Shown: positions 1 to 21,199 of the stretch, piece after piece
How positions within the stretch are numbered: the first letter of the stretch is position 1
Layout: each line of letters starts with the position of its first letter
Assembly: GCA_964471805.1 (NCBI GenBank)
Contig: CAYYGX010000001.1
Coordinates: 5,954-51,016, forward strand
Length of the DNA stretch: 45,063 nt
Origin: an uncultured Gammaproteobacteria bacterium
GTDB lineage: Bacteria; Patescibacteriota; Patescibacteriia; UBA9629
Direction of reading: 5' to 3'
Made by a program: the position numbers and the translations under genes
Notes under the pieces: generated by a model
Told to the model about the DNA's origin: nothing
The model's input: only the letters and a program-made list of their open reading frames with translations
The model's database searches: none

Positions 1-606
1 CTTTTTCGTTTGTAACGCATGCCGAGCCTTCTCCGCCAAGCGCAAATGCTGATCGTATAATAACAGGGTAGCCGATTTTTTTTGCCGCGGTGATCGCTGA
101 TTTTGGAGTTTCGACAGCCGCGCTTTTTGGAGTTAAAAGATTAAGTTTTTTGAGCGTTTGTATAAAAAGCGCGCGATCTTCAGTTTTTTCTATTGCGGAC
201 ATTGGCGTGCCAAGGATGCGCGGTTTTTTACTCCCTCTATCTCCCCCTTTGTAAGGAGGAGAAGCAGAAGGGGTGATAATAAACCCTTCTTTATATAAAT
301 CAATTCCGCAGTTCAACGCCGTTTGTCCTCCGAAAGAAAGCAGGATGCCGTCCGGTTTTTCCTGCTTTATAATTCTTGAAACGAAATGCGCGTTTACAGG
401 CAGGAAGTATACGCGATCCGCAAGCCCGCTTGATGTTTGATAGGTTGCGATATTCGGGTTGACGACAATGGTTTTTATGCCCTCTTCTTTCAGAGCTTTA
501 ATCGCTTGAGACCCCGAATAATCAAATTCGCCGGCCTCGCCGATTTTTAAGGCGCCGGAGCCGAGGATAAGAATTTTTTTGGGTTTTTGAGGACGATATA
601 TTGACA
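1..606 (-). CDS. carB: carbamoyl-phosphate synthase large subunit, 5' part (open at window edge)
   Basis: Absent from the ORF track because it is open at position 1. Reverse translation from ATG 606-604 gives [59 protein letters not shown]...GGQTALN...EDRALF...[16 protein letters not shown], the canonical CarB ATP-grasp N-terminus. It lies directly downstream of carA. Confidence 0.9.
231..262. repeat. GC-rich hairpin element, copy 1 (translated in frame inside carB)
   Basis: CTCCCTCTATCTCCCCCTTTGTAAGGAGGAG shares CTCCCT-N4/5-CTCCCCTTTGTAAGG with the reverse complement of 631-663. It encodes ..[11 protein letters not shown].. within carB. Confidence 0.6.
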
Positions 607-629
607 TAATTAGAGCATACTCAACATTA

Positions 630-697: not shown

Positions 698-1864
698 TCA
701 GTTGGGCCGGGCGAAGCTTCCGGGTGAAACTGCACTGACATCCACGGTTTTGTTTCGTATGCCCTCGTTAGTTCCGTCATTGAGATTCGTAAACCACGGC
801 TCCCAATCGTTTGGCAAACTGTCTGTGTCTACAGCATAGCCGTGATTTTGAGTGGTGATGAAGGCGCTGGAGTGAACATTTGACATTTGACATTTGACAT
901 TTGACATTTTTACCGGCTGATTCTGCCCGCGATGTCCGTATTTTAATTTGTACGTCTTCGCGCCACAGGCAAGCGCCAGGAGTTGGTTGCCAAGACAAAT
1001 GCCAAGAATGGGAATTATAAATGACGAATTACTGATTACTAATTGATTTTTTATTTGTTCAATTGTTTTATCGCATTTTGCAGGATCTCCTGGTCCATTT
1101 GATACCACTATTCCATTGATGCGGATTTTATCATAATTCTTAATTTTTAATTCGTAATTCGTTAATTCAAAGTCCCACGGCACACGTATCACACGACAAC
1201 CGCGCCGAAGTAGACAACGAATGATATTCAATTTCACGCCGCAGTCGTAGAGAAGAACATTTTGTGTTTTGTGTTTTGTGTTTTGTAGCGGTGGTTCGTA
1301 AATGATTGGTTCACGGCAACTTACTTCCGCCACTAAATTTCGTTTATTTGGATCGTCAAAGTTTTGGTCTTTGAGTTGTAGTTTTGACATTTGACATTTA
1401 ACATTTGATATTTTTCCCAGCATCGTCCCTTTTTCCCGCAGTCTTTGCGTTAAGGCACGCGTGTCAATTCCTTCTATTGCTGGAATATTCTCTGACTTCA
1501 GCCAACTCCCGAGCGACTGCGAAGCCTCCAGGTGCGAATATGCCTTGCAGTATTCATTGACAACAAGACCAGCCACTTGTATGCGCTCTGATTCAAAAGG
1601 ATATGTTAGTAAGTTTTGAGTTTTGTCAACCAAAGGTTGGTCCGCCTTTGGCGGAAGTTTTGAGTTATCGGCAACTCCGTAATTTCCGATCAACGGATAC
1701 GTCAACACTAAAATTTGTCCGTGATATGACGGATCAGTGAACGTTTCCGGATACCCAACCATGCCGGTGTTAAACACGACCTCTCCAGACGCTGAAGTTT
1801 CTGCGCCAAAAGATTCGCCGTGGAGTATTGTTTTATCTTCTAATACAAGTGATTGAGTTCTCAT
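698..1864 (-). CDS. carA: carbamoyl-phosphate synthase small subunit (glutamine amidotransferase); 3' end apparently frameshifted
   Basis: ORF track 698..1915. The conserved CarA N-terminus MRTQSLVLEDKTILHGESFGA.. starts at ATG 1864. Motifs present: FNTGMVGYPE, GICLGNQLL (Cys nucleophile), GHRGQNQPV, TTQNHGY. The expected ..VQFHPEASPGP.. block is only readable in another frame (637-750); see findings. Confidence 0.85.
   Translation of the reverse strand: MRTQSLVLEDKTILHGESFGAETSASGEVVFNTGMVGYPETFTDPSYHGQILVLTYPLIGNYGVADNSKLPPKADQPLVDKTQNLLTYPFESERIQVAGLVVNEYCKAYSHLEASQSLGSWLKSENIPAIEGIDTRALTQRLREKGTMLGKISNVKCQMSKLQLKDQNFDDPNKRNLVAEVSCREPIIYEPPLQNTKHKTQNVLLYDCGVKLNIIRCLLRRGCRVIRVPWDFELTNYELKIKNYDKIRINGIVVSNGPGDPAKCDKTIEQIKNQLVISNSSFIIPILGICLGNQLLALACGAKTYKLKYGHRGQNQPVKMSNVKCQMSNVHSSAFITTQNHGYAVDTDSLPNDWEPWFTNLNDGTNEGIRNKTVDVSAVSPGSFARPN
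876..909. repeat. tandem heptamer array (ACATTTG) about 4.9 copies, inside carA
   Basis: Exact 7-nt period counted at 876-882, 883-889, 890-896 and 897-903, plus a partial unit. Translated as ..KMSNVKCQMSNV.. Confidence 0.9.
1028..1048. repeat. tandem heptamer array ATTACTG/ATTACTA/ATTGATT (3 units = 21 nt), inside carA
   Basis: 7-nt period counted directly. Encodes ..QLVISNS.. where CarA homologues (from memory) are about 6 residues shorter. Confidence 0.7.
1134..1168. repeat. tandem heptamer array TAATTCT/TAATTTT/TAATTCG/TAATTCG(+partial), inside carA
   Basis: 7-nt period counted directly. Encodes ..ELTNYELKIKNY.., a region about 7 residues longer than in B. subtilis PyrAA (from memory). 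Confidence 0.75.
1261..1288. repeat. tandem heptamer array (TTTGTGT)x4 (last unit TTTGTAG), inside carA
   Basis: 7-nt period counted directly. Encodes ..QNTKHKTQN.. Confidence 0.85.
1387..1414. repeat. degenerate tandem heptamer array ACATTTG/ACATTTA/ACATTTG/ATATTTT, inside carA
   Basis: Same unit as 876-909. Encodes ..ISNVKCQMSK.. Confidence 0.75.
1613..1666. repeat. 31-34 nt double-hairpin element flanked by a 10-nt direct repeat, in frame inside carA
   Basis: GTTTTGAGTT (1613-1622) / ttgtCAACCaaaGGTTGgTCCGCCtttGGCGGAa (1623-1656) / GTTTTGAGTT (1657-1666). 24 of 28 core positions are identical to 18115-18142. Confidence 0.7.
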
Positions 1865-1868
1865 ATAC

Positions 1869-1894
1869 AAAAAATCCCGAGAAATCGGGATTTT
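1869..1894 (-). terminator. rho-independent terminator-like hairpin after hicA, 7 nt before the carA ATG
   Basis: aaaaaATCCCGAgaaaTCGGGATttt: perfect 7-bp stem with a 4-nt loop. On the minus (coding) strand it is followed by TTTTTT. Confidence 0.6.
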
Positions 1895-2120
1895 ATAAAT
1901 TATTAAATTGTTCAATACTTAATTCAGTTGCGTCAATTATATCTTTTAATGTTTTTCTTTTTATTGTTTTACCGGAATGCCGCGGAATTATTATTATTTT
2001 TTGGTCTTTCTTTCTTACCCACATTTCATGAGAGTCCTTGCATTGTTTATAAAATACAAAACCGCATTTTTTTATTTTCTGAATAACTTTTTTATCGGTT
2101 AATGATGGAAATTTAGGCAT
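1893..2120 (-). CDS. hicA: HicA-family mRNA interferase toxin
   Basis: MPKFPSLTDKKVIQKIKKCGFVFYKQCKDSHEMWV..IIIPRHSGKTIKRKTLKDIID..LSIEQF fits the HicA/YcfA pattern (leader, GF..., (G)SH, basic C-terminal half). ATG at 2120; the track ORF begins at TTG 2138. Confidence 0.8.
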   Translation of the reverse strand: MPKFPSLTDKKVIQKIKKCGFVFYKQCKDSHEMWVRKKDQKIIIIPRHSGKTIKRKTLKDIIDATELSIEQFNNL

Positions 2121-2127
2121 TAGAATT

Positions 2128-2358
2128 TTAAACCGCAATAGCTAAACCCTGCCATAATTCTTGCTCTTTATATTTAATCGCTGGCTTTGCAATGAGCTTT
2201 CTATACTCCAGAATATCTTTAAGAATACTTTTTAAATTTTCTACAGCCCTTTCAATTGTTTCACCATCAGCCCATGCGCCTTGAATAACCGGGCACCGAG
2301 CATAATAACCGCCCTCTTTATGTTCTTCAATTATGATAGGATAGAAATTATTTTTCAT
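2128..2358 (-). CDS. hicB: HicB-family antitoxin (UPF0150-like)
   Basis: MKNNFYPIIIEEHKEGGYYARCPVIQGAWADGETIERAVENLKSILKD.. is typical of the HicB N-terminal domain. Immediately upstream of hicA. Confidence 0.75.
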   Translation of the reverse strand: MKNNFYPIIIEEHKEGGYYARCPVIQGAWADGETIERAVENLKSILKDILEYRKLIAKPAIKYKEQELWQGLAIAV

Positions 2359-2374
2359 AGTAAGCACAATCATA

Positions 2375-3286
2375 TCAAACCTCGTCTTTTTTCGTCAAGC
2401 GCATAAAAATCGCCATACGGACCCATACGCCGTTATGAGCTTGTTTGAAATAAATCGCCCGCGGGTCGCTGTCTATTTCCGGATTTATTTCCCCGACTCT
2501 CGGCAGGGGGTGCATAAAAAGGCAACTATCCTTAAAGAGAAGAGCGGTCGTTTTATCTAGCAAGTATGTATCTTTGAGCCGCGCATATTCTGCTTTATTT
2601 TGGAAACGCTCTTCCTGCACGCGCGTCATGTATAATATATGAGCTTCTCTCGCAACGTCATTCCATGTTTCAAGTTCTTGATAAGAAACGCCTTGATTTT
2701 TTAGCCGAGTTAAAATTTCCTCCGGCATCCTTAAAGAAGGAGGGGAGATGAAGTAAAATTTTGGATTAAAGTGAGCAAGACCTTGAGATAAAGAGTGCAC
2801 TGTTCTTCCGTATTTGAGATCGCCGACAAAAGCTATAGTTAAATTGTTCAGAGAAATTTTTTCAGCGATCGTAAAAATATCTAAAAGCGCCTGCGTTGGA
2901 TGCTCGCCGCTTCCGTCTCCGGCGTTTATAATCGGCACATCTGAAACCGTAGCCGCGCGCGCCGAGGCGCCAGTTTCCTGGTGGCGCATTACAATACAAT
3001 CGGCATAACCGTTTACGATTTTAATTGTGTCTTCAAGAGTTTCTCCTTTTTTTGTTGATGTTGTTCCCGCGTCCGCAAATCCGATTACTTTTGCTCCAAC
3101 CCGAAGCGCCGCGGATTCAAACGAAAGCCGTGTGCGCGTGGACGGTTCAAAGAAGAGGGTTGCAACAATGGAGTCTTTGCGCGCACCCCGATACATCCTT
3201 GATGATGCTTTTATCTTACGCGCTTCTTTAATAAGATCAAGCAGTTCATCGCGCGAAAAATCAGTAATGGATAGTATATGTTTCAT
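2375..3286 (-). CDS. pyrB: aspartate carbamoyltransferase catalytic subunit
   Basis: STRTRLSFE, GEHPTQALLD, HPLPRV motifs; 303 aa. Confidence 0.95.
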   Translation of the reverse strand: MKHILSITDFSRDELLDLIKEARKIKASSRMYRGARKDSIVATLFFEPSTRTRLSFESAALRVGAKVIGFADAGTTSTKKGETLEDTIKIVNGYADCIVMRHQETGASARAATVSDVPIINAGDGSGEHPTQALLDIFTIAEKISLNNLTIAFVGDLKYGRTVHSLSQGLAHFNPKFYFISPPSLRMPEEILTRLKNQGVSYQELETWNDVAREAHILYMTRVQEERFQNKAEYARLKDTYLLDKTTALLFKDSCLFMHPLPRVGEINPEIDSDPRAIYFKQAHNGVWVRMAIFMRLTKKDEV

Positions 3287-3774: not shown

Positions 3775-4192
3775 CGCTCTGCATTTTAGCAAGCTCTTGA
3801 GCGAGTCGATGTTTTTCCAGAAGTTGCGCATCTCGCAAAGTAGTCCAATAATCAACCGACTCCGTTCTTTTGGCTTTTTTCTTCTCATCATCACTGTTTT
3901 CCAAAAGTTTTATGCTTTTGCGAATGTTTATCTCTACGCCGTGGAGTCGTTGGCACACCCCATCATACAGTCCTAGCGTTGTTACAAAGTTCGGATTATT
4001 GTTTCCGCAAAGACGGCAAAATGGTTCATCCTCTTTTAAGAGGTGGTCTGGGTTCGTTGCGCATTTTTCGGATATTGTTTCTCTTTCAGGATTCTTGCGT
4101 CGGAGTCGTTGAAAGTTTCTTTTTGGCACCTCCGCGTCAATAAATCCCTCCACACCCATTAACATCGCGCGACAGATTTCATGTTTGCTCAT
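3755..4192 (-). CDS. hypothetical protein (Cys-containing, K/E-rich C-terminus)
   Basis: 145-aa ORF packed between neighbours with ATGA-type overlaps. No family recognised. Confidence 0.4.
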   Translation of the reverse strand: MSKHEICRAMLMGVEGFIDAEVPKRNFQRLRRKNPERETISEKCATNPDHLLKEDEPFCRLCGNNNPNFVTTLGLYDGVCQRLHGVEINIRKSIKLLENSDDEKKKAKRTESVDYWTTLRDAQLLEKHRLAQELAKMQSDERNAN

Positions 4193-4908
4193 AAGTGTTT
4201 TTGACTCTCCTTAGATAAGTTTAGCTTTTTTTCACGCATATCCATCTGCCAAATATATTTTTGTGATCGAAAAATTACAGAACATAATCCAATCAGTGAT
4301 AATATGAGTACAAAAGGAAGCGCGTGACGGAGGTACGTGTGATCATAGATAATCAAGGTATTTGCCAAAATGAAAATAATCCGCAACTCGGTAGGGCCGA
4401 GTCGGAGATAGTTAATTTTTAATTGATTCATTGCGCCAAACGCAAGATACGAATTTACCATGAATGCTCCGAAAATTGACAAGATGAAAAAGAGAAGGTA
4501 GTGCGCGTTATTAGATACGATAAAAAAATAAGCGATGAGTATGGAGCATAAAAATATGTAATCCAAAAAGTGATCCATATAATACCCCCATCTGATCAGC
4601 CCAGTTTTCCTATATTTCCCAAGTGAGCCGTCAAAAGAATCGGTAAACCATTGAAGCGCAATCATCACAGAAGCAAGCCAAAGCCACGATAAGTTCGTCT
4701 TAGCAAGGAAGCCAAAAAAAATAACACCACCACTCCATAAAATTGTAAGAAGAGTGAGGTGATATGTTTGAATCCAAGAAGGAAAATATGGGATAAGGGC
4801 AAGAATCAGTCTCTGTTCAAAGGACGTGAGAAGAGATTTGGTTCCATATTTTTGATCTCCCCTAAATGTTTCTATTTTGTTTATATTATTCATAAGATGG
4901 TTGCCCAT
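4189..4908 (-). CDS. CDP-alcohol phosphatidyltransferase family protein
   Basis: DSFDGSLGKYRK matches the D-x2-DG-x2-(A)R core. Multiple TM helices. Alternative start at ATG 4893. Confidence 0.75.
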   Translation of the reverse strand: MGNHLMNNINKIETFRGDQKYGTKSLLTSFEQRLILALIPYFPSWIQTYHLTLLTILWSGGVIFFGFLAKTNLSWLWLASVMIALQWFTDSFDGSLGKYRKTGLIRWGYYMDHFLDYIFLCSILIAYFFIVSNNAHYLLFFILSIFGAFMVNSYLAFGAMNQLKINYLRLGPTELRIIFILANTLIIYDHTYLRHALPFVLILSLIGLCSVIFRSQKYIWQMDMREKKLNLSKESQKHL

Positions 4909-6661
4909 CCTTTATTATCCGTTCAGAAAATTGTTTTAGCGATTCGTTAATCGGCTCCCTTGAACCAAAACGCCGGACTGAAAGCATTGCAGTATCTTTC
5001 CAAACTCCGCTTGGCGTTGCTTCTTTATCGCCGATTACAATTATGTAAGGAATTTTTTGGCCCGCAGAGTTTCTGATTTTTGCGCCTACTGTTTCACCGC
5101 TTTCGTCAATTTTGATGCGAAGCTCTGCATTTTTTGCAAGCAGATATTCCTTGAGCAATGACGCGTTTGGAATATGGTTTAGAGATACGGGCGCGATAAT
5201 AATCTGCACAGGCGCAAGCCAGAAAGGAAACGCGCCGGCAGTGTGTTCAATTAAAATGCCCATAAAACGTTCAATTGCTCCAAGTATTGTGCAGTGAATT
5301 ACTGCCGGACGCTCCTTTTTTCCGTCAGTATCAATGTAGTGCATGTCAAAGTTTTCCGGCTGATTAAAATCAAGTTGTACAGTGGTAAGTTGCCACTGCC
5401 TTCCGATGGAATCATTGATCGTAATATCAATTTTCGGCCCATAAAATGCGGCTTCGCCTTCTACAATCGTATATGACACTCCCCAATTTTTGACAGCCGC
5501 AATAAGCATCTGTTCCGCTTTTGCCCACAGCGCGTCATCTCCAAAGTATTTTTCTTTATGTTTTGGATCGCGCACTGAAATGTTTACCGTGTATTTTTCC
5601 AGGCCGAAAACGCGATATGTATTTTGCATCAAAGACAAAATCATTTTTATTTCCGATTCAATTTGATCGTGTCGTATGAAGTGGTGCGTGTCATCTTGCG
5701 TAAGTCCTTTCACTCGCACGAGTCCCGCGAGTTCTCCGCTTTTTTCATTGCGATAGACCGCTGTTGTTTCCGCATAGCGAATCGGAAGTTCGCGATAACT
5801 GTGCGCTGATCCGTTATAAAGTTCAAAGTGGTGCGGACAGTTCATAGGTTTTATCACAAATTCATCTCCTTCTGAATCTGTCATAACAGGCATCATCGCG
5901 TCATATTTTCCAAGATGCCCGCTTTTTTTATATAACTTTGTTTTTGCGATATGCGGGATATGCACGAATGTATAACCGAGCTTCTCCTTCTCGCGCCGCA
6001 TAAATTTTTCCAGTTCATGTTTGACTACCTCTCCTTTTCCGGTAAATAGCGGCAACCCTGGCCCTACAAGATCAGAAAAAATAAACAACCCGAGTTCTTT
6101 GCCCAATTTTTTATGATCGCGTTTTTTTGCTTCCTCGCGCATCTGGAGATAATCGTCAAGTTCTTTTTTAGTTCCAAACGCAGTTCCATAGATGCGGGTG
6201 AGCATCGCGTTTTTTTCGTTTCCACGCCAGTAGGCTCCGGCGATGGAAAGTAGCTTGAATGCCGTTATATCTTTGTGCGGATTCTCTACGTGTCCGCCTC
6301 GGCAAAGGTCCGTGAAATTTCCGGCTGTGTATACTGTAATTGTTTCGTTTGCATTCGCAAGCTCGTCAATGAGTTCAAGTTTATACTTGTTTGATGCGAA
6401 AAGTTTTTTTGCCTCGTCTGCCGATACCTCGCGCCGCGAAAATTCAGTCCAACTCGGAAGCAATTCCAGCATTTTCTTTTCAATTTTTGGAAGATCGTCT
6501 TCAGAGATTGGAGAAGGAAATTCAAAATCATAATAAAAACCCGATTCAATCGGGGGACCAATCGTCGGGCGCGCGCTTTTGTAAAGTTCCACAACCGCCG
6601 CGGCCAATAAATGCGCCGCGCTGTGCCGGAGGTTCTGGAGATGAGTTTTGTCGTCAAGCAT
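4886..6661 (-). CDS. thrS: threonine--tRNA ligase (no N-terminal TGS domain)
   Basis: HSAAHLLAAAV editing-domain motif and class II core (FRNE-like YRNEKSGEL, GAFPFWLAP). 591 aa, starting directly at the editing domain. Confidence 0.95.
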   Translation of the reverse strand: MLDDKTHLQNLRHSAAHLLAAAVVELYKSARPTIGPPIESGFYYDFEFPSPISEDDLPKIEKKMLELLPSWTEFSRREVSADEAKKLFASNKYKLELIDELANANETITVYTAGNFTDLCRGGHVENPHKDITAFKLLSIAGAYWRGNEKNAMLTRIYGTAFGTKKELDDYLQMREEAKKRDHKKLGKELGLFIFSDLVGPGLPLFTGKGEVVKHELEKFMRREKEKLGYTFVHIPHIAKTKLYKKSGHLGKYDAMMPVMTDSEGDEFVIKPMNCPHHFELYNGSAHSYRELPIRYAETTAVYRNEKSGELAGLVRVKGLTQDDTHHFIRHDQIESEIKMILSLMQNTYRVFGLEKYTVNISVRDPKHKEKYFGDDALWAKAEQMLIAAVKNWGVSYTIVEGEAAFYGPKIDITINDSIGRQWQLTTVQLDFNQPENFDMHYIDTDGKKERPAVIHCTILGAIERFMGILIEHTAGAFPFWLAPVQIIIAPVSLNHIPNASLLKEYLLAKNAELRIKIDESGETVGAKIRNSAGQKIPYIIVIGDKEATPSGVWKDTAMLSVRRFGSREPINESLKQFSERIIKDGQPSYE

Positions 6662-7918: not shown

Positions 7919-10900
7919 TTATTGTAAGATCACATCTATTTTTCGTTGCAGTAAATCTTCCGGATGCACCTTGAAAGATGTTTTTATGATTTTAACACGG
8001 TTCCCGATAATCTGTAAATACACAGGCACGTCCCCGGGAAATTGAACCAGCAGTTCTTTGATTTTAATCAGCTTGTCTTTTGAAATAATCGCTGGAACGC
8101 GCACTGTAAACGCGGTTTCTTCCGATTTTTTTTGTTTGGTTTTTGTCATAGCCTCCAGCTTTTGTTCATCAATCGGTTTGATCGTTTCCGCAATGAATTT
8201 CGGCTCCGTATCTTTCCAGGAAAGCGAGCCTGTGATAAAAAGAACCGCGTCTTTGCGAACAATATTTTTTAGGTTCTGCAAAAGGCGGGGAAATATGATC
8301 ATTTCTAATTCCCCGCCGAAATCCTCTATTTTTACAAAAACCATCGTGTCTCCTTGTTTTGTCTGGATAGATTTTATGGTATTTACAACTCCTATGATTG
8401 TAGTTTTTTCGTTACGTCGAGCGATTCCAAGTTCTTCCTGATTTACGAGCGTTTTAATCGGCGTTATGCCGAGATTTTCCATGTACGGCTTTACGTGATC
8501 AAGCGGATGAGCGCTCGCGTAAAGCCCTAGATATTCTTTTTCGTATTGAAGAAGCGGATAAGTCGCGGGATCCGGGAGCGATTTAAATCGTATTTCGCGC
8601 GTAACAGGCGCGTCTCCGAATAATGACACGCGATCAGAACTTGTATGAGTTTTTATATCGCGCGCAAATGTAAGCATAGTTTCTATATTGTAATCAAGTG
8701 TCGCGCGGTCGCAAAATCTATCAAGCGCGCCGGCACGGACCAATGCCTCAAGCGATTTCTTGTTGATTGTTGTTGTGCGAATCAAAAAATCCTGAAGAGT
8801 CGCGTAAGCTCCATGCGCCTCGCGATCTTCCATCACCTGTTCAATCACATTTGCCCCCAGATGCTTAATAGCATTTAACCCAAAACGGATGTTTTGTCCT
8901 TCATTAGGAGTTCCGATCACAGTAAACCCTCCGAGGCTTTCGTTCACGTCAGGCGGAAGCGTTAAAATACGCAAAGCGCGGCATTCATCAATTCCTTCAG
9001 CAACTTTCTCCATATCGCCGGATTCGCATGTCAAAAGCGCGGCCATAAATTCTGGAGAAAAATTAGCCTTCACATAAGCGGTTTGATACGCGACAAGCGC
9101 ATAAGAAGAGCCGTGCGCTTTATTGAATCCGTACGCCGCAAACGGTTCTATCAGACGCCATATTTGTTCGGCTTCGTTATCTGAAAGCGAGCTTGTTATT
9201 TTGCACCCGTAAATAAATTTATCTTTTTGCGCCGCCATTTCAGCCGGAATTTTTTTACCGATCGCTTTTCGTAACTTGTCCGCTGATTCCCAGTTGTATC
9301 CCGCAAGAGTTATGGCGGTTAAAAGCACGTCATCCTGATAAGTGATGATGCCGTATGATTTTGCGAGAATTTCTTTGAGTTTCGGATGAGGGTACGAAAC
9401 AAGCGAGGGATTATGTTTTCTCTTAATATATTCAGGAAGAGATTCAATGGGCCCGGGCCGGTAAAGAGAAATCATTGCCATAATGTCAAAAATCGTTGAC
9501 GGCTCAAGTTCTTTCAGATACCGCGTCATTCCGCTTCCGGAGAGTTGAAACACGCCCATGGTTTGTCCGCGAGCGAGAAGAGTATATGTTTTTGCATCGT
9601 CCAAAGGCAGTTTTTCAAGATCAATAGTAATCCCCCGCGTGCGCGAGATTATTTCGCGGGCAAGCCCGAGAATGGAGAGATTTGTGATTCCTAGCAAATC
9701 CATTTTCAGAAGCCCTGCGTCTTCAACCGCGTGCATTTCATATTGCGTTGTTATAGCTCCTTGGCGCGCGTCTTTTTGAAGCGGCGTAAAATCAGTGAGT
9801 TCTCCAGGAGCTATAACAATGCCGGCCGCGTGCACGGACGGGTGCCGAACGCATCCTTCCACTTTCCGTGAAAGATCAATCACGCGCGCCACATCCTCAT
9901 TTTCATCATATGCGGTTTTGAGTTCAGGGTTTTCAAGCAGGGCTCTTTCAAGAGTCATCTTGAATCCTTGAGAGCCGATCGGAATCATTTTTGCGAGTTT
10001 GTCGCAGAACGAATACGGTAGATTCAGCACGCGCCCCATATCCCGCACCGCCGCCCTGGCAAGGAGCGTTCCAAACGTAATAATGTGCGCGACTTTATCT
10101 GCGCCGTATTTGTCGCGCGCATACTGAATTACCTCGGATCTGCGGGCGTCTTCAATATCAATATCAATGTCCGGAGGCGACGGGCGATAAGGGTTTAAGA
10201 AACGTTCAAAAGGAAGATCAAAACTCATCGGATCCGCGGTTGTGATTCCGACAGCATAAGACACTAGAGAACCTGCGGCGCTCCCTCTCGTTGTTGTGAT
10301 GATATTTTTTGCGCGCGCAAAACCTATAATGTCCGCGACAACTAAAAAATAGGGCGCAAAGCCCTTCTTTTTGATGATGTCAAGTTCGTAACTTAACCGT
10401 TTTCTGTATTCTTCACTCACCTCGTCTATTGATCGCGCATTCAAGCGTAGAAGAAGCCCGGTTTCCGCCTCTTTTGCAAGATACTGGTCCGGCGCCATGT
10501 TTTGCGGAATCTCCACTGTCGGGAACATCCACTTTCCAAGCGGAAGTTCCACTGAAACTCTTTCTACTACCTGTCTAGTATTTTCAATCGCTTCCGGAAT
10601 TTCGCGAAATTTATCTCGCATTTCATCTGGAGACGCAAAGTGAAGGTTTGAGTTTATCATTGTCAGACGGTTCGCGTCCTCAATTTTTTTTCCGGTCTGC
10701 AGAGCAAGAAGCGCGTCTTGGGCATATTTGTCTTCCGGGTTTATGTAGTGCGCGTCGTTTGTCGCAACAAGCGGCACGTTTAGTTCCCGCCCTAATTCTA
10801 TAAGCGCATCCCTGATCGTTTTATATTCTGGCATTTCCGGATGATCCTGAATTTCCAAAAAATAATTTTCACGCCCGACGAGTTTTTGATATTCCAAAAT

Positions 10901-11386
10901 CACCGCGCGCGCGGAGTCTTTCCCTTTTTTAAGAATGACCCTCGCGAGTTCGCCGTTTGCGCAACCTGAAAGTATAATTAATCCTTCGGAGTGCAGAGCG
11001 AGAGATTCTTTATCAATGCGAGGTTTGTAATAAAATCCTTTGAGCCAGCCGATGCTCGTTAGTTTCATTAAGTTTTTGTATCCCTCGTAAGTTTTTGCAA
11101 GGAGCGTGAGATGATAGCGCGATCGCTCGCTTTTGCTCCGATCTTCGGAGAGCGGATACGGGGAGACGTACGCTTCCATTCCGATGATCGGCTTTACGCC
11201 ATGCTCTTTGCATGTTTTGTAAAATTCAATTGCCCCGTACATCGCGCCGTGATCAGTTAGCGCAAGCGCTGGCATCTTAAATTCGCTGGCCTTTTCCACA
11301 AGGTCTGAAATTTTCGGCAGGCCGTCTAAAAGCGAGTAGTGGCTGTGGACGTGGAGATGGATCATGAAGGTTTTATGATTTATCAT
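7919..11386 (-). CDS. dnaE: DNA polymerase III alpha subunit
   Basis: PHP N-terminus HLHVHSHYSLLDG, polymerase core and OB-fold region, about 1150 aa. Start uncertain: ATG 11386, 11365 or 11440. Confidence 0.95.
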   Translation of the reverse strand: MINHKTFMIHLHVHSHYSLLDGLPKISDLVEKASEFKMPALALTDHGAMYGAIEFYKTCKEHGVKPIIGMEAYVSPYPLSEDRSKSERSRYHLTLLAKTYEGYKNLMKLTSIGWLKGFYYKPRIDKESLALHSEGLIILSGCANGELARVILKKGKDSARAVILEYQKLVGRENYFLEIQDHPEMPEYKTIRDALIELGRELNVPLVATNDAHYINPEDKYAQDALLALQTGKKIEDANRLTMINSNLHFASPDEMRDKFREIPEAIENTRQVVERVSVELPLGKWMFPTVEIPQNMAPDQYLAKEAETGLLLRLNARSIDEVSEEYRKRLSYELDIIKKKGFAPYFLVVADIIGFARAKNIITTTRGSAAGSLVSYAVGITTADPMSFDLPFERFLNPYRPSPPDIDIDIEDARRSEVIQYARDKYGADKVAHIITFGTLLARAAVRDMGRVLNLPYSFCDKLAKMIPIGSQGFKMTLERALLENPELKTAYDENEDVARVIDLSRKVEGCVRHPSVHAAGIVIAPGELTDFTPLQKDARQGAITTQYEMHAVEDAGLLKMDLLGITNLSILGLAREIISRTRGITIDLEKLPLDDAKTYTLLARGQTMGVFQLSGSGMTRYLKELEPSTIFDIMAMISLYRPGPIESLPEYIKRKHNPSLVSYPHPKLKEILAKSYGIITYQDDVLLTAITLAGYNWESADKLRKAIGKKIPAEMAAQKDKFIYGCKITSSLSDNEAEQIWRLIEPFAAYGFNKAHGSSYALVAYQTAYVKANFSPEFMAALLTCESGDMEKVAEGIDECRALRILTLPPDVNESLGGFTVIGTPNEGQNIRFGLNAIKHLGANVIEQVMEDREAHGAYATLQDFLIRTTTINKKSLEALVRAGALDRFCDRATLDYNIETMLTFARDIKTHTSSDRVSLFGDAPVTREIRFKSLPDPATYPLLQYEKEYLGLYASAHPLDHVKPYMENLGITPIKTLVNQEELGIARRNEKTTIIGVVNTIKSIQTKQGDTMVFVKIEDFGGELEMIIFPRLLQNLKNIVRKDAVLFITGSLSWKDTEPKFIAETIKPIDEQKLEAMTKTKQKKSEETAFTVRVPAIISKDKLIKIKELLVQFPGDVPVYLQIIGNRVKIIKTSFKVHPEDLLQRKIDVILQ

Positions 11387-11738
11387 CTGGAAAGTCCAGT
11401 TTATATCCGAAAGGATTGACTCGTTTGACATCAATATCAATCACTTCTTCTTGCTTGTGTCCTTTTACGGTAGTACTTTGGCCTATTTCTAATGCCAGTA
11501 TCTTTTCTTTAACATGCTCATCTATAGTAATACCTTTCTCTTTATTAAGCCATGTAATCGTATCTGTGATATGGCTATCGATTTGGTATCCCATACTTTT
11601 CTGATTATTTTTATCGTCATGATCTCCAAAAAAAAATAATTTTTTGCTTTCAGGATTCATAAATTCAGTGTAGATACAAAAAGTTTCTCTCTTTGCGCCT
11701 ACATTAGGTAAAATATGCAAAAGCGTAATGTTTCTCAC
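11373..11738 (-). CDS. hypothetical protein
   Basis: 121-aa ORF. Its GTG start overlaps the stop of the upstream gene (GTGA). Alternative ATG at 11660. Visibly AT-rich. No family recognised. Confidence 0.45.
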   Translation of the reverse strand: MRNITLLHILPNVGAKRETFCIYTEFMNPESKKLFFFGDHDDKNNQKSMGYQIDSHITDTITWLNKEKGITIDEHVKEKILALEIGQSTTVKGHKQEEVIDIDVKRVNPFGYKLDFPDDKS

Positions 11739-12208
11739 CGTCTTGATTCTGTTCTGCTCTCGGTGATTTTAGGATAAAATTCTCCTTCGCATCCATCTTT
11801 CAATACATTTGGTATTTCATAATACTTAAATATCTCTCTTGCAGTTAATTCTATAACGTTTTCCGGTTTGACAAAATCCAATCCAACAATTGCTATTTGA
11901 TACTCATCTACCTTTTTCACATTCTTTTCAGGTATAGAGGATATATCCACTACATAGATATAAATTTTACTTTCAGGGTTAAATTTTTCTGGAGACCCAA
12001 AAGTAACCAATCGCTCTTGCTCGTCAATTACTGTTAGTCCTTCGGGTCTAGCTGCCATAACAACTGCAAAACCATAATCAGGAGTTAAGTATATTGCATT
12101 CAAAAGTTCATCTTCAGGCACTATCAATCCTTCTTTTACTTGCGCCTGCTTATTTTGAATTTCATTAAACCTAAATTTTGAACCGTGATAGCAAATCATA
12201 AAATTCAA
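11735..12208 (-). CDS. hypothetical protein with YHGS...YLT...EY pattern (possible DUF3990/ART-like fold)
   Basis: MICYHGSKFRF..NAIYLTPDYGFAVVMA..DEYQIAIVG. The pattern is reminiscent of H-Y-E ADP-ribosyltransferase-like folds. Pattern only, not a search result. Confidence 0.45.
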   Translation of the reverse strand: MNFMICYHGSKFRFNEIQNKQAQVKEGLIVPEDELLNAIYLTPDYGFAVVMAARPEGLTVIDEQERLVTFGSPEKFNPESKIYIYVVDISSIPEKNVKKVDEYQIAIVGLDFVKPENVIELTAREIFKYYEIPNVLKDGCEGEFYPKITESRTESRR

Positions 12209-12526: not shown

Positions 12527-12531
12527 ATATA

Positions 12532-12620
12532 AATGTCAAATGTCAAAGTTCTAATGTCAAATAAATTCCCAATGGATTTTGGATTTATTTATCATTTGGA
12601 TTTTGTCATTTGGATTTTTA
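12532..12620. repeat. intergenic 7-nt-periodic repeats (AAATGTC family, TGGATTT x2, 14-mer TCATTTGGATTTTK x2)
   Basis: 12532-12566: AAATGTC AAATGTC AAAGTTC TAATGTC AAATAAA, the same heptamer as on the carA coding strand. 12574-12587: TGGATTT x2. 12593-12620: two 14-nt units. Confidence 0.8.
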
Positions 12621-12683
12621 ATATAATGATTCTACCACACCTTCACCTCTTTTTTCAACTATGCTACTATAAGCGCTATACTT

Positions 12684-13511: not shown

Positions 13512-14623
13512 AACTTCCAGTTTACAGCCGTTTCCGCAATTTTGATTGTGGGATACTTATTTCCGTCATTTTTTTGATTCTCATAGGTTGCGCCACGCTT
13601 TATAGTTTAGAACTTAATAATGAAAATCCTAATTTTTCCCCGCTCCTTCGTCAAGGATCCGCCTCTGTTCTGGGGATTTTTTTATTAATAGCGGCGCTTT
13701 TTACTGATTTTCGCCACTTAAAAAGTTATGCTTATATTCTTTATGTTCTCGGGCTTATCATGCTTGCCTCTCTCCTTATTTTTGGAGTTACCATTCACGG
13801 CACCAGGGGATGGTTTGCTTTCGCTGGAATCACGTTTCAGCCGGTTGAGTTATTCAAAATATTTTTTATCATCGCGCTCGCGAAATTTTTTTCCAGTATA
13901 CGAACCATTAACGATCCGGTGAATTTGCTGAAATTAATATTATTTTTGATCGCGCCTGCGATCCTCATTCTTCTTCAGCCGGATCTCGGCGCGCTGATTA
14001 TTTTAGTTGCGATTTTTGCCGGGTATCTTTTTACGGCAAAACTGAAACGAGTATTTGTCTTATTTTTTATTTTTATAACGCTTGTCGGCATCATTGCCTC
14101 ATGGCAGTTTCTCGCGCCATACCAAAAAGATCGAATCAGCAGTTTTTTTAATCCAGACATAAACACAAAAAGTAACGCTTATAATATTACGCAGTCCAAA
14201 ATCGCGATTGGCTCCGGGCGCATGTTCGGGCGCGGGCTCGGGCTTGGGACGCAAAGTTCTCTTCATTTTCTTCCAGAGGAGGAAACAGATTTTATTTTTG
14301 CGGTCATTTCTGAATCCCTTGGTTTTGTCGGCGGCGGACTGCTTATTTTGTTGTATACTTTTCTTCTTTCAAGAATTATCTCTCTTGCAAATCGTCTAGA
14401 TGATCCATTTGGCTCTCTTATCGCTCTTGGCGTATTTTTTTGGTTTGCTTTTCAGGGATTTGCGAATATCGCGATGAATATCGGACTTCTGCCTATATTT
14501 GGCGTTCCCTTGCCTTTTGTAAGCTACGGCGGAAGTTCGCTTCTTGTCAGTATTTTTGCGATTGGCGTTTTAGAGAGCGCCGCGCTTTTTTCTCCTCAAA
14601 GAGTTAGCTCGCTCAAGAGATGA
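13508..14623 (+). CDS. SEDS-family peptidoglycan glycosyltransferase (FtsW/RodA)
   Basis: About 10 TM segments; QPDLGA.., ..EETDFIFA.., PLPFVSYGGSSLL motifs. Confidence 0.9.
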   Translation: MKLPVYSRFRNFDCGILISVIFLILIGCATLYSLELNNENPNFSPLLRQGSASVLGIFLLIAALFTDFRHLKSYAYILYVLGLIMLASLLIFGVTIHGTRGWFAFAGITFQPVELFKIFFIIALAKFFSSIRTINDPVNLLKLILFLIAPAILILLQPDLGALIILVAIFAGYLFTAKLKRVFVLFFIFITLVGIIASWQFLAPYQKDRISSFFNPDINTKSNAYNITQSKIAIGSGRMFGRGLGLGTQSSLHFLPEEETDFIFAVISESLGFVGGGLLILLYTFLLSRIISLANRLDDPFGSLIALGVFFWFAFQGFANIAMNIGLLPIFGVPLPFVSYGGSSLLVSIFAIGVLESAALFSPQRVSSLKR

Positions 14624-16233: not shown

Positions 16234-16270
16234 GGGATTGCTAAAGCAGACAGCAATCCCCCTTTTTTTT
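16234..16270. terminator. terminator-like hairpin right after the prfA stop
   Basis: GGGATTGCT-aaagcagac-AGCAATCCC followed by CCTTTTTTTT on the + strand. On the minus strand it is followed by TTATTCTTTT. Confidence 0.45.
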
Positions 16271-17309
16271 ACCGCAGTTTTTCCTGAAGCGTTTTTATGA
16301 CAGCTTCTATCTCTCCATTCATAATCCGCTCAATCTGGCCCCAACTTTCTTTGATGCGGTGGTCGGTTACGCGATCTTGCGGGAAATTATATGTGCGGAT
16401 TTTTTCTGAACGATCTCCGGTGCCTATTTGTCCGCGCCGCGCGGCATCGTGTTCCTGTTTCTGCCGTTCGGTCTCTTGCGCCAAAAGGCGCGATTTCAAA
16501 ATAGTAAAAGCTCGTTCTTTATTTTGAAGTTGAGACCTCTCATCCTGGCATGACACGACAAGCCCGGTTTTAAGATGCGTGATCCGCACAGCTGAATCGG
16601 TTGTATTCACTGATTGTCCTCCGTGTCCGCTTGAGCGAAACACGTCTATTCGCACGTCCTCCGGCTTGATTTCCACTTCAAGATCTTCAGCTTTTGGTAG
16701 CACTGCGACTGTTGCTGTTGATGTATGAATTCTCCCTGATTTTTCTGTTTCCGGTATTCGCTGAACTCTATGCACGCCGCTTTCGTATTTTAATTTTGAA
16801 TACGCGTTCTCGCCCTGAATTTCAAAAATAATCTCCTTAAATCCTCCTATCCCGATGCGGTTCTCGGAAAGAGTTTTTACGCGCCAGCCCTTATCTTCCG
16901 CATATCGCGCATACATCCGGAATAAATCCGCGGAAAAAAGCGAGGACTCGTCTCCTCCAGCGGCCGCGCGAATTTCCACAATAATATCGCGTTTATCAAG
17001 CGGATCTTTCGGTTCCAGTTCTTCCAATCTACATTTGACGCTCGTAATTTGACTTTTTAGATTTTTAATTTCCTCCTCCGCGAGCTCGCGCAATTCCAGA
17101 TCTTCAGCAGATCGCTCCGTTTCCTCTGCCTGCGCGAGATGATGATTCAGCATGGCGAGTTCTTTAGTATGCGCTATTTTCTTTTTTAGATCATTATATT
17201 CAATTGTTAGCGCGCGCAATCGCGAGGAATCGCGCAAAATTTCCGGCTTTTGTATGTCAGCTTCAAGCTCATTTTGACGAATTGTAAGCTCGGTAATATC
17301 GTATTCCAT
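16269..17309 (-). CDS. prfA: peptide chain release factor 1
   Basis: GGQSVN (GGQ) and [22 protein letters not shown] (RF1-type tripeptide region, not SPF). Confidence 0.95.
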
Positions 17310-17413: not shown

Positions 17414-18109
17414 ATGCTGACTGACCGCCAGAGAACACTGTTAAACGCGCTAATGAATCAATATATTAAAACAGGAGAACCGATCGGTTCGGAACTCCTA
17501 GTAGAGGAGTGCAATCTTTCTGTTTCCTCCGCAACTGTAAGGAATGAAATGCTCGCGCTCGATACCCTCGGGTATCTTGAAAAACTTCATACATCGTCCG
17601 GCAGAGTTCCAACTGAAAAGGCGTATTCCTATTATGTCGCGGAGTATGCGAAAAACCAAGTGCTAAACGCCAGATACAAAGAACGCTTATCGCAACTCAT
17701 TCCAATTTCAAAACATCTAAGCTCGCGCGAAATCGTAAAAGACGTTTCACGAAACATCGCGGATATCGCGCATGAATTTATACTCACGGCTTTTGCGGAT
17801 AATGATTTTTACTACACGGGATTATCGCATCTTTTTACAAAACCGGAATACGGAGAAGCGGAGAGAATAAGAAATTTATCTGAAATCATTGATGCATTTG
17901 ACGCGACGCTAAAAGAACTATACCGCACCATTCCTGAAGAAACACATACGTTTATAGGGTCAAAAAATCCTATTGATAAAAGTTCCAGCTTAATCACAGT
18001 CCGCATCGGCGCGAACGGCCCTATTCTTGCGCTTCTTGGGCCTATGCGAATGCGGTATGATGTTAATATAGCTCTTTTAAGATATTGCCAGTCCTTATTG
18101 GCAGATTAA
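17414..18109 (+). CDS. hrcA: heat-inducible transcription repressor HrcA (short form)
   Basis: MLTDRQRTLLNALMNQYIKTGEPIGSE...SSATVRNEM..L...GYLEKLHTSSGRVPT. Confidence 0.9.
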   Translation: MLTDRQRTLLNALMNQYIKTGEPIGSELLVEECNLSVSSATVRNEMLALDTLGYLEKLHTSSGRVPTEKAYSYYVAEYAKNQVLNARYKERLSQLIPISKHLSSREIVKDVSRNIADIAHEFILTAFADNDFYYTGLSHLFTKPEYGEAERIRNLSEIIDAFDATLKELYRTIPEETHTFIGSKNPIDKSSSLITVRIGANGPILALLGPMRMRYDVNIALLRYCQSLLAD

Positions 18110-18147
18110 GCCAGCCAAAGGCTGGTCCGCCACTGGCGGAAATTAAG
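18105..18147. repeat. 31-nt double-hairpin element flanked by ATTAAG direct repeats (hrcA-grpE spacer)
   Basis: ATTAAG / CCAGCCaaaGGCTGGTCCGCCactGGCGGAa / ATTAAG. Same element as 1623-1656. Confidence 0.7.
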
Positions 18148-18163
18148 AATCGCACTGGAGAGT

Positions 18164-18655
18164 ATGGAAAACAATTCCTTACAACAACAAACAGCGCAAA
18201 CGCAATCTAAAGAAATCGCGGAACTGCAAAAAAAATGCGGCGAGTATCTCGCTGGCTGGCAGAGGGCAAAAGCCGATTACAGCAATCGCGAAAAAGATAT
18301 CGCGCGCGAAAAAACGGAGTTTGTGAAATTCGGAAATGCGGCGTTGATTCTTGAGCTCATTCCGATTTTTGATAATTTTCGCGAGGCCATGATGCACGTT
18401 CCAAACCAACGCAAAACAGACGAGTGGGTTATGGGAATAGAACTCGTGAAAAAACAGATCAGCGATTTTCTCAAAAATTTTGGCGCGGAGCCGTACGGAA
18501 AAGAAGGAGACGCGTTTGATCCGAATATCTTTGAAGCGCTGGATGAGACAGACTTAGAAGAGGATAAAAAAGGAAAAATTGTGAAGGTTGTGCGGATGGG
18601 ATACAAGCTCCACGGCCGGGTAATCCGCCCGGGCCAAGTGATCGTTGGCAAATAA
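18164..18655 (+). CDS. grpE: nucleotide exchange factor GrpE
   Basis: Coiled-coil N-terminal part with ..WQRAKADYSNREKD.. and a C-terminal beta domain ..MGYKLHGRVIRPGQV.V. Confidence 0.9.
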   Translation: MENNSLQQQTAQTQSKEIAELQKKCGEYLAGWQRAKADYSNREKDIAREKTEFVKFGNAALILELIPIFDNFREAMMHVPNQRKTDEWVMGIELVKKQISDFLKNFGAEPYGKEGDAFDPNIFEALDETDLEEDKKGKIVKVVRMGYKLHGRVIRPGQVIVGK

Positions 18656-19261: not shown

Positions 19262-21199
19262 ATGTCAAAAATTTTAGGCATTGACCTTGGCACCACGAAT
19301 TCCTGCATGGCAATTATGGAGGGCGGGGAGCCAAAGGTTCTGGAAAATAAAGAAGGGCAACGCACAACTCCGTCGATTGTTGCGATTTCAAAATCAGGCG
19401 AGAGGATTGTCGGAGTCGCGGCAAAACGGCAATCGGTTACAAATCCGCAAAATACTCTGTATTCGGTGAAGCGGCTTATCGGACGGCGTTTTGATGATTC
19501 GGAAGTTCAGCGTTCTATAAAAACGCTTCCATATGAAATTCGCAAACGCGGCGAAGGAGTTGAGGTGAAAATGGGCGACAAGTGGTATACGCCGCAGGAA
19601 ATTTCCGCGATGATTTTGGTAAAACTGAAAAACGACGCTGAAGAAAAGACAGGAGAAAAAATTAGAGAAGCCATCATCACATGCCCCGCGTATTTTGACG
19701 ACTCGCAGAGAAAAGCCACAAAAGAAGCAGGGGAAATCGCCGGGCTTAACGTTCGCAGGGTTATAAACGAACCCACAGCCGCGGCGCTCGCTTACGGTTT
19801 TGACAAAAAGAAAGACGAAAAAATCGCGGTGTACGATTTGGGCGGCGGCACTTTTGACATTTCTATATTAGAAGTTTCTTCTGACACAGTTGAAGTGAAA
19901 GCCACAAACGGCGACACGCACCTTGGCGGAGACGATTTTGATCAGATACTCATGGAATGGATTGCCGACGAATTTAAGAAAGATCATGGCATTGATTTAA
20001 GACAGGATAAGCTCGCGCTTCAGCGCATTAAAGAGGCGGCGGAAAAAGCGAAGATTGAACTCTCAACGCAGATGGAGGTTGAAATCAACCAGCCGTTTAT
20101 CACAAGCGGCGCTGAAGGGCCAAAGCATCTTCTCTTAAAACTCACGCGCGCGAATCTAGAACAGCTTGTCGGGCACATAGTTCAAAAAACTCTTGGGCCA
20201 GTGAAAAAGGCGCTTGCGGACGCAAAACTTTCCCCAAAAGATATGAACGAAGTGGTGATGGTTGGAGGGATGACTCGTATGCCGCTTGTTTTTGAGACAG
20301 TGGAAAAATTTTTCGGCAAAAAACCGCACCTTGGCGTGAATCCGGACGAAGTTGTTGCGGTCGGAGCCGCGGTGCAGGCCGGCGTTTTACAAGGGGACGT
20401 TAAGGATGTATTACTACTTGATGTAACGCCGCTTACTTTGGGAATTGAAACATTGGGTGGAGTCCGTACACCGCTTATTGAACGAAACACAACGATTCCA
20501 ACCGCAAAGTCGCAGATATTTTCAACAGCCGGAGACAGCCAGACGTCAGTTGAGATCCATGTTTTGCAAGGCGAGCGTGAGATGGCTGGAGATAACAAAA
20601 CGCTCGGTAAGTTTATTTTGGGCGGCATTCCTCCAGCTCCCCGCGGCGTGCCGCAAGTTGAAGTAACCTTTGACATAGACGCAAATGGGATTTTGCATGT
20701 AACGGCAAAAGACAAGGCAACCGGAAAAGAACAGAAAATCACGATTACCGGTTCAACAGGGCTTTCAAAAGATGAAATTGAGCGCATGAAGCGCGACGCG
20801 GAATTGCACGCTGATGAGGATAAGAAAAAGAAAGAATTGATTCAGGAGCGCAACACTGCAGAGAGCTTGGCGTACACGGCCGAGAAAACCGTGAAAGACG
20901 CTGGCGATAAAATAAGCTCGGATGAGAAAAATGAAGTGGAAGATCATGTGAAAAAAGTGCGGGATACTTTAAGCGGAGACGACGCTGGCGCAATTAAACA
21001 AAGCGCCGAGACATTAGGCCAAGTTTTGCAAAAAATTGGAGCAAAGATGTACCAAGCCGGACAAACAACCGGCGAGGAATCCGGGGCGCAAGCAAACGCC
21101 AGTGAAAACTCTGACCAAGTCGCGCCGAGCGAGAATAAAAAAGACAATGTCGTTGAAGGGGAGTATGAGGAAGTGAAGGACGAGAAGAAGAGTGGGTAG
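19262..21199 (+). CDS. dnaK: molecular chaperone DnaK
   Basis: [27 protein letters not shown] and the rest of a full-length Hsp70. Confidence 0.98.

Follow-up and report, generated by a model that had tools for sequence, protein, structure and literature searches.

Introduction

Small dispersed palindromic repeats are a known kind of genetic element. The present work concerns a 30-nt repeat of this kind, made up of two adjacent GC-rich hairpins, which occurs twice in a stretch of 45,063 nt (the window) from a metagenomic contig labelled as uncultured Gammaproteobacteria (CAYYGX010000001.1, positions 5,954–51,016): once within carA and once between hrcA and grpE. Several described systems come close to it. 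The Rickettsia palindromic elements (RPEs) reportedly insert in frame in protein genes, where their translation lengthens the protein by a peptide segment; RPE-1 is about 100–150 nt long and restricted to Rickettsia. The small dispersed repeats (SDRs) of the Nostocales are hairpin-forming sequences of 21–27 nt that show signs of recent insertion, and no transposase is known for them. They are reported only in Nostocaceae, and their sequences are not known to be related to the 30-nt element. Elements of the IS200/IS605 type insert as single-stranded DNA beside a short specific sequence, without target duplication. Repetitive extragenic palindromic sequences (REPs) are defined by a GTAG or CGTC tetranucleotide at one end; some lie inside genes, adding 20–30 residues, and RPE-4/6 of Rickettsia are CGTC REPs (PMC3733652). 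Finally, the mitochondrial double-hairpin elements (DHEs) of chytrid fungi and fission yeasts have copies that are identical or near-identical between long-diverged species (PMC10085805).

The 30-nt element resembles REPs and bacterial interspersed mosaic elements in being a short (20–40 nt), GC-rich imperfect palindrome with many dispersed copies, compensatory changes in the stems, common dimers and no target duplication. It differs from REPs in three ways. Its consensus, nnTnTCCGCCAAAGGCGGATCCGCCTCTGGCGGAAAAn, has no GTAG or CGTC tag at either end; ∼ 60% of its copies lie inside open frames, far above the expectation for an extragenic repeat such as a REP; and the 30-mer is nearly identical across phyla, whereas REP families are species- or genus-specific. 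Like DHEs it is a pair of adjacent GC-rich hairpins within a more AT-rich genome, tens of nt long, suspected to be mobile and without a known enzyme (PMC10085805, in part). DHEs, however, are organellar, lie mostly in intergenic or rRNA regions and show no sequence similarity to it, and the passages of PMC10085805 considered here mention no association of DHEs with heptamer repeats; the analogy is one of form only. The likeness to RPEs is that of a putatively selfish palindromic repeat that resides in frame and is translated, but the present element has only 30 nt and its hosts are Patescibacteria and members of other phyla. SDRs are similar as tiny dispersed hairpins in heptamer-rich host genomes (PMC5861425, in part). 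Miniature inverted-repeat transposable elements (MITEs) and palindromes derived from IS200/IS605 are likewise non-autonomous, structured and small. The 30-nt element shows no duplication and is far below the usual MITE size; in contrast to IS200/IS605 elements its flank preference is limited to TTn/AAa, and neither a parent insertion sequence nor a TnpA was found among the open reading frames (ORFs) of the window or near the copies. Length, residence in long ORFs, near-invariance across uncultured phyla and the lack of a visible mobilising gene together set the family apart. Literature searches by sequence and by topic returned only cloning primers and analogous elements, and no description of the family in these bacteria.

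We interpret both sites in the window as diverged copies of a dispersed 30-nt palindrome that is probably selfish, non-autonomous and tolerated in coding sequence, with a probability of roughly 70%.

Results and discussion

Two copies of a double hairpin in the window

The two copies (Table 1) were noticed in a preliminary description made from the letters of the window alone, and much of what it reported is confirmed. The 10-mer GTTTTGAGTT is found at 1613–1622 and 1657–1666, with the hairpins CAACC-aaa-GGTTG and TCCGCC-ttt-GGCGGA in between. Positions 1630–1657 and 18115–18142 share 24 of 28 letters, a compensatory pair (A-T versus G-C) distinguishes stem 1 of the two copies, and stem 2 is identical while its loop differs. 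The extent of the element needs revision, since comparison within the family and with the empty site gives 30 nt (1626–1655) and not 34 nt. In the window GTTTTGAGTT has three matches and GGTCCGCCNNNGGCGGAA two, where shuffled sequences lead one to expect 0.16 and 0.03 respectively. Both copies fold as two adjacent hairpins, either as DNA or as RNA (z-scores −3.2 to −4.2). A covariance model of the family (R1, from the copies described below) recovered just these two copies from the window, with 47.4 bits (E = 6e-11) for copy 1 and 49.7 bits (E = 1.6e-11) for copy 2.

Copy 1 is translated within carA, on the minus strand, as ..NSKLPPKADQPLVDKTQNLL.., where the element itself reads (L)PPKADQPLVD. 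Copy 2 starts 1 nt past the stop codon of hrcA (TAA, 18107–18109) and ends 23 nt ahead of the grpE ATG (18164). At its gathering score, Rfam recognized only two tRNAs in the window and left the element unmatched; at permissive thresholds the best weak match at the element site was Moco-II (E = 6.1). An intrinsic (Rho-independent) terminator was also considered and rejected. T residues precede and A residues follow the hairpins, a terminator scan makes no call, and the A-rich sequence that follows makes the hairpins unlike a terminator.

The corresponding sites of close relatives lack the element

The nearest relatives available, which came from ENA and Logan assemblies, lack the element at these sites. 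The coding strand of carA reads AAC TCA AAA CTT / 30 nt / AAA ACT CAA AAC in the window and AAC TCC AAA CTT / AAA ACT AAA GAC in the closest ortholog (L001), where both flanks (AACTCCAAACTT|AAAACTAAAGAC) are present without the element. The net gain is exactly 30 nt (10 codons), and it is precisely the 30 nt of copy 1 that have no counterpart in L001. This ortholog and a further relative (L003) carry the same heptamer array, (AACTYAA)n, at the site, and when the 30 nt are removed from the window sequence its heptamer register is continuous. Because L001 already has both flanks, the array is older than the element. What had been taken for a 10-nt target-site duplication is therefore a pre-existing repeat: GTTTTGAGTT represents 1.4 units of the fifth heptamer array of carA. 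Moreover, an insertion of 34 + 10 = 44 nt would break the carA frame and does not fit the net difference of 30 nt. The insertion in the protein, put at about 21 residues in the preliminary description, amounts to 10 residues relative to the nearest ortholog and to ∼ 12 relative to more distant CarA proteins.

Uridine phosphorylase provides the second of the two cleanest comparisons. The protein has 285 residues in the genomes that carry the element (L106, at about 4697–4726, and L136) versus 275 in eight closer homologs without it. At the DNA level the empty site reads GAA AAA TTG / AAA TTC and the filled site GAG AAA TTA / TCCGCC...GGCGGA / AAA ATT. As in carA, exactly 30 nt have been gained without duplication of the target; a short direct repeat pre-exists in the empty site. 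In the copy of L136, helix 1 is kept by a double change from C-G to T-A, at the cost of a Gly-to-Ser substitution. The copies of L106 and L136 sit at the same codon position, in proteins that are 68% identical. Occupation of one codon in these two, with eight closer homologs lacking the element, implies either recurrent insertion, several precise losses or transfer between lineages.

The spacer between hrcA and grpE measures 54 nt in the window versus 4–11 nt (TAA G AAC..ATG) in five relatives without the element, one of which has 95% HrcA identity. A 6.9-kb alignment at 89.6% identity contains five indels of at least 4 nt, and the largest, 43 nt, contains copy 2. Copy 2 is bracketed by two heptamer units (Table 1), where relatives have GATTAAG followed by AACTAAA (L129), or a shorter spacer. 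The difference runs in the other direction upstream of dnaE, where the sister species (L001 and L129, from different samples) has a copy at a break in synteny and the window has none. The window and the sister species thus share none of the three sites (carA, hrcA-grpE and upstream of dnaE).

In the sister species the break past dnaE coincides exactly with the double-hairpin copy and four heptamer units. Around it, the window (11373–12208) has two ORFs of unknown function where the sister species (L001 1–1220, L129 3025–4815) has a HindIII-like restriction-modification pair.

A family of more than 100 genomes

One genome per bacterial species was scanned with the pattern AAAGGNNNNTCCGCCNNNGGCGGAA. 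This pattern leaves the left arm of helix 1 free but prescribes the two leading bases of its right arm, the AAA loop and the whole of helix 2; roughly 17 chance matches were estimated for the whole collection. At least 120 loci were matched. Among the 139 matches listed, the six bases upstream pair with GGNNNN in 130, although they lie outside the pattern, and 122 are true copies after removal of duplicates. The family consensus is TCCGCC-AAA-GGCGGA-TCCGCC-TCT-GGCGGA, usually with TT before and AA after. A generic double-hairpin scan of the seeded loci (8-kb genome pieces around the pattern matches) gave 136 matches versus one in shuffled sequence, and added ∼ 19 copies to those already seeded.

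Members of the family are present in more than 100 genomes at species level, from Patescibacteria and several other phyla. Among the loci listed, the hosts are mostly Patescibacteria of many classes, joined by Ignavibacteriota (including contigs of 1.6 Mb), Omnitrophota, Elusimicrobiota, Bacteroidota, Kiritimatiellia, Planctomycetota, Auribacterota and further phyla. The loci are independent, coming from many sequencing projects and assemblers. The consensus had no blastn match in PLSDB plasmids or GenBank phages and five matches in IMG/VR, two of them true copies. The preliminary description had called for a genome-wide search, as its proposal would have suffered had these two copies been the only ones. 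They are not, and the covariance model and the counts of base pairs bear out the double hairpin.

The census also settles whether the resemblance of the two window copies could be due to chance similarity of two GC-rich hairpins, or to an assembly or sequencing artefact. Such doubts might arise because there are only two copies in the 45-kb window and the contig is metagenomic. Against the 0.03 chance matches expected in the window stand at least 120 independent loci from many projects and assemblers, 1.6-Mb contigs among them, and copies that lie in frame inside conserved genes; we regard this explanation as refuted.

Two side observations concern the hosts. Records of metagenome-assembled genomes (MAGs) that are titled 'uncultured Gammaproteobacteria' (L012, L014, L106 and similar; protein P0136) encode proteins nearest to those of Patescibacteria. 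Some records labelled in this way are probably Patescibacteria, and the taxonomic labels of such MAG records look unreliable. The homologs of CarA and HrcA likewise assign the organism of the window to Patescibacteria, near Candidatus Jacksonbacteria. In four loci from Ignavibacteria (L047, L088, L111 and L120) the element lies ∼ 40 residues from the C-terminus of large proteins (…SAKGGSASGG…SGVYFY…). The resemblance of this region to a type IX secretion sorting domain suggests that here the element spread with a duplicated protein domain or with paralogs.

Compensatory changes keep both hairpins

The two-hairpin structure is kept by compensatory changes. In an alignment of 121 sequences, 99% of cells are paired under the double-hairpin model and double changes account for 52 cells, versus 8.5 in shuffled alignments, with none of 500 shuffles as good. 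Pair 7–17 is C-G in 89 sequences, A-U in 25, G-C in four and U-A in three. Helix 2 is uninformative in this alignment because the search pattern had fixed it. Copies found independently of the pattern do show covariation in helix 2 (TCAGCC/GGCTGA, CCAGCC/GGCTGG, TCTGCC/GGCAGA and CCACCC/GGGTGG). The constraint on structure that had been suggested from the two window copies thus holds for the family. A single long hairpin (cruciform arm) was tried as well and rejected: it is the minimum-energy fold of the consensus, but pairs only 78.6% of cells and gives no covariation signal.

Flanking sequences and the question of target-site duplication

T occupies position −2 in 93 of 119 copies and A occupies position +2 in 108 of 119, the latter not being forced by the pattern; the flank preference is TTn / AAa. 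The preliminary description expected flanking duplications to be reproduced at other copies. When tabulated across ∼ 120 copies, no consistent duplication was found; ∼ 85% have no flanking repeat and ∼ 14% match at a period of 37 nt. What does recur is a setting. In approximately 15% of cases the copy is enclosed by short tandem repeats; these are mostly heptamers, and each locus has its own repeat sequence. After joining the flanks, a lag-7 periodicity of at least 0.5 is seen for 15% of copies compared with 0.7% of random sites, and self-matches of the flanks peak at periods of 37 and 44 nt, corresponding to the element plus one or two heptamers.

These periods invite the explanation that the element is a classical MITE- or REP-type element with a 7-nt target-site duplication, the heptamer arrays being amplified duplications or footprints of insertion and excision. 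In the window, 7-nt direct repeats with a period of 37 nt enclose both copies, and 16 of 118 copies match at five or six of six positions at this period, versus 0.6% of controls. Close relatives with a shorter hrcA-grpE spacer have a single clean ATTAAG, and the four units that come after the dnaE-upstream copy in L001/L129 are similar to the heptamer before it. However, an insertion of 30 + 7 = 37 nt shifts the frame, whereas carA and uridine phosphorylase show a net gain of 30 nt at a repeat that was already there, and the great majority of copies have no flanking repeat at all. Even at hrcA-grpE the repeat may pre-exist, since L129 has the degenerate second heptamer AACTAAA. We consider the explanation improbable. 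Taken together, the tandem-repeat flanks and the empty sites point to a preference for such repeats and make duplication on insertion less likely.

Copies inside genes survive as ten extra residues

The length of the consensus is a multiple of three, and there is no stop codon in any of its six frames. One strand reads SAKGGSASGG, PPKADPPLAE or RQRRIRLWR and the other strand gives similar peptides. The element would persist in genes because of these two properties. Copies inside genes survive as 10 extra residues, as in CarA and uridine phosphorylase; the proposed residence of a miniature, dispersed and structure-constrained repeat in coding sequence without a break of the frame is thereby upheld. 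Open stretches of at least 450 nt hold 61% of copies, compared with 82% of random sites. Ser/Ala/Gly frames are used in 58 of 75 copies, mostly as SAKGGSASGG, and the Pro-rich frame found in carA is rare (5 + 2 copies). Within ORFs the orientation is biased (29 versus 10, p = 0.003), as selection on the inserted peptide would produce; outside ORFs, relative to the neighbouring genes, it is not significantly so (17 versus 12).

The bias inside ORFs could alternatively be seen as a sign of function, with the element a cis-acting sequence selected site by site: a binding site for a conserved protein, a structure that stabilizes or processes the mRNA of the hrcA-grpE-dnaK transcript, or a flexible protein linker. 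The extreme conservation across phyla, the maintenance of the hairpins by compensatory change and the position of copy 2, which falls within the transcript of a heat-shock operon, past a stop codon and ahead of the following ribosome-binding site, would all be in keeping with such a role. Yet the genes that hold copies are unrelated, every frame is used, other copies lie in spacers and there is no neighbour in common; close relatives, moreover, manage without the element at these sites. Rfam contains no matching family, the hairpins are not terminator-like, and the frame bias is that expected from purifying selection on inserted peptides. A selected function at each site is thus very improbable.

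Search for a mobilising enzyme and a proposed mode of spread

REP-associated tyrosine transposases (RAYTs) are IS200/IS605-like enzymes whose genes are typically flanked by REPs. No RAYT, other transposase, HUH enzyme or integrase was identified among the 40 window ORFs with Pfam and NCBIfam, which were also used for the gene assignments in Table 1. All-against-all clustering of 1,469 ORFs from ∼ 125 loci gave no family present in more than six loci near the copies, and no insertion sequence was seen to adjoin copies in the 8-kb seeded loci. One recurrent case in the clustering, the C-terminal sorting domain of Ignavibacteria proteins, looks like the spread of paralogs. The GTAG/CGTC tag is missing as well, and the link to REPs and RAYTs suggested in the preliminary description is not supported by these loci.

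Spread may not require a transposase at all if it occurs by template switching during replication. A nascent strand would stall or slip in a tandem repeat, pair through TT/AA microhomology with another copy, copy the 30 nt and return. This is consistent with the lack of an associated enzyme gene in the window or near copies, with the absence of target duplication in the two clean pairs and with the strong enrichment of copies in slippage-prone heptamer repeats; the conserved TTn and AAa flanks could serve as the microhomologies. Polymerase slippage is credited for heptamer repeats in the literature summarised in PMC4679880. On the other hand, the 30-nt boundaries are very precise in all clean cases, whereas the junctions left by template switching are usually variable, ∼ 85% of copies lie outside tandem repeats, and the sequence identity across phyla is explained no better. 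As the sole account of the family we find template switching unlikely.

We favour instead a selfish, non-autonomous mobile sequence. From presence and absence, length, structure and distribution, all observed directly, we infer both the mobility of the element and its mode of insertion. The element would move as a folded single strand and enter at junctions of T-rich and A-rich sequence, preferably in slippage-prone tandem repeats, where single-stranded DNA would be exposed. The agent could be an unlinked enzyme acting in trans (HUH/Y1-like or other) or polymerase template switching. The insert in carA would then be a tolerated loop insertion and not a functional module.

Several points weigh against this reading. 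No mobilising enzyme was found among the 40 window ORFs or as a family enriched near copies, and movement is deduced from presence and absence. The lack of an orientation bias outside ORFs gives no support for strand-specific insertion of a single strand. At copy 2 the second heptamer may be either a degenerate predecessor or a 7-nt duplication. Ascertainment biases the conservation statistics of those positions that the pattern prescribes, namely two bases of helix 1, the AAA loop and helix 2. With two copies in the 45-kb window and ∼ 19 extra ones in ∼ 0.97 Mb of seeded loci, the copy number per genome is only a rough figure. Lastly, near-identity of the 30-mer across phyla is hard to obtain by selfish spread alone, and an interaction with the host could be conserved. 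In sum, the finding is real, and the broad idea of a tiny mobile element that can enter coding sequence and leave the frame intact finds support.

More speculatively, the family could be the first noticed member of a class of bacterial 'double-hairpin elements' that has spread without a linked transposase through Patescibacteria and at least six other phyla. It would enter slippage-prone repeats and, with in-frame heptamer microsatellites, continually reshape the housekeeping proteins of very small genomes at their surface loops. On this reading, the near-identity across phyla would point either to recent horizontal transfer between unrelated bacteria that live together or to reliance on a host enzyme conserved in all of them. 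We put this forward tentatively and think it doubtful in its full breadth. Should the element be mobile, it would offer a tractable case for studying the movement of orphan hairpins, loop insertions in the proteins of reduced genomes and the abundance of heptamer microsatellites in some prokaryotes. In practical terms, such elements inflate and fragment gene calls and add SAKGGSASGG-like peptides to many proteins predicted from metagenomes, and they could mark horizontal exchange among groundwater and sediment bacteria.

The carA host gene and its surroundings

Table 1. Positions of the element, of heptamer repeats and of genes in the window.
Feature	Position (nt)	Strand	Remarks
carB	1–607		
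carA (carbamoyl-phosphate synthase small subunit)	637–1867	−	Host of copy 1; listed ORF 698–1867; TIGR01368, E = 5.5e-119
Four further heptamer arrays within carA	876–909, 1134–1168, 1260–1286, 1383–1413		Tandem Repeats Finder
Heptamer microsatellite (GTTTTGA)n	1613–1666		Split by copy 1; coding strand (AACTCAA)n, encodes NSKLKTQ-type runs
Copy 1, 30-nt double hairpin	1626–1655	+ (family AAA-loop-first orientation)	TCAACC-aaa-GGTTGG TCCGCC-ttt-GGCGGA
hicAB	1893–2373		
pyrB	2375–3286		
thrS	4886–6661		
dnaE	7919–11440		
prfA	16269–17309		
hrcA	17414–18109	+	Immediately precedes copy 2; about 231 aa, a length shared by other Patescibacteria
Two heptamer units bracketing copy 2	18104–18147		GATTAAG before, AATTAAG after
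Copy 2, 30-nt double hairpin	18111–18140	+	CCAGCC-aaa-GGCTGG TCCGCC-act-GGCGGA
grpE	18164–18655	+	Downstream of copy 2
dnaK	19262–21199		

The carA gene of the window contains a frameshift in its 3′ part, within about 740–765, where the window is 5 nt short relative to L001 and L003; the conserved C-terminus KPWMSVQFHPEASPGPTDTDWVFDEWL runs on in another frame to a TAA at 637–639. Either the gene was inactivated very recently or the assembly is in error. Were carA a decaying pseudogene, residence 'in frame' would be meaningless. The ratio of nonsynonymous to synonymous substitution rates (dN/dS) relative to L001 is 0.22, similar to that of pyrB (0.21). This indicates that carA has been under purifying selection and argues against long-term decay. 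An AlphaFold model of CarA has a mean predicted local distance difference test score (pLDDT) of 60, with residues 28–97 all below 50, which is too low to inform on the placement of the insert.

The other heptamer arrays of carA vary in a similar way. Two of the four account for exactly seven extra residues (21 nt, three units) in the alignment with the closest ortholog, and related CarA proteins have NSKLKTQ-type runs at the same loops. In relatives these loops can also be encoded by different heptamers. Heptamer tandem repeats are the dominant repeat class of the window, with further arrays at 12531–12618 and 14060–14074.

The array site in carA hosts a different hairpin element in another lineage, a Candidatus Jacksonbacteria MAG (L002). 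This 42-nt element, STCLIGSPPKRRKPQL, shares the TCCGCC/GGCGGA stem, has a GAAGA loop and occurs twice (3016–3090 and 3850–3895), each time inside heptamer arrays. A lone TCCGCC/GGCGGA hairpin is located inside a TTTTTGT array of L003 (12686–12706).

Inverted repeats of a second kind are found nearby. The sequence CCCCTTCTGCTTCTCCTCCTTACAAAGGGGGAGATAGAGGGAG, at about 231–275 in carB (minus strand), adds ∼ 13 in-frame residues relative to L001, and the related CTCCCCTTTGTAAGGGAAGG is located at the 3′ end of carA (about 629–661). In the related genome L003 (4360–9073), carB is called as two pieces with small genes in between: an unannotated gene of 75 residues, a HicA toxin and an NYN-domain protein.

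Elsewhere in the window, one uninterrupted frame (23427–25076) runs across a WecG-type glycosyltransferase domain, a tRNA-Gly(CCC) (24247–24321), a NUDIX domain and DUF5674. Between about 12000 and 18000 the GC skew changes sign and the gene orientation switches from minus to plus, which suggests a replication origin; heptamer arrays are also present inside this region, in the intergenic stretch 12527–12683.

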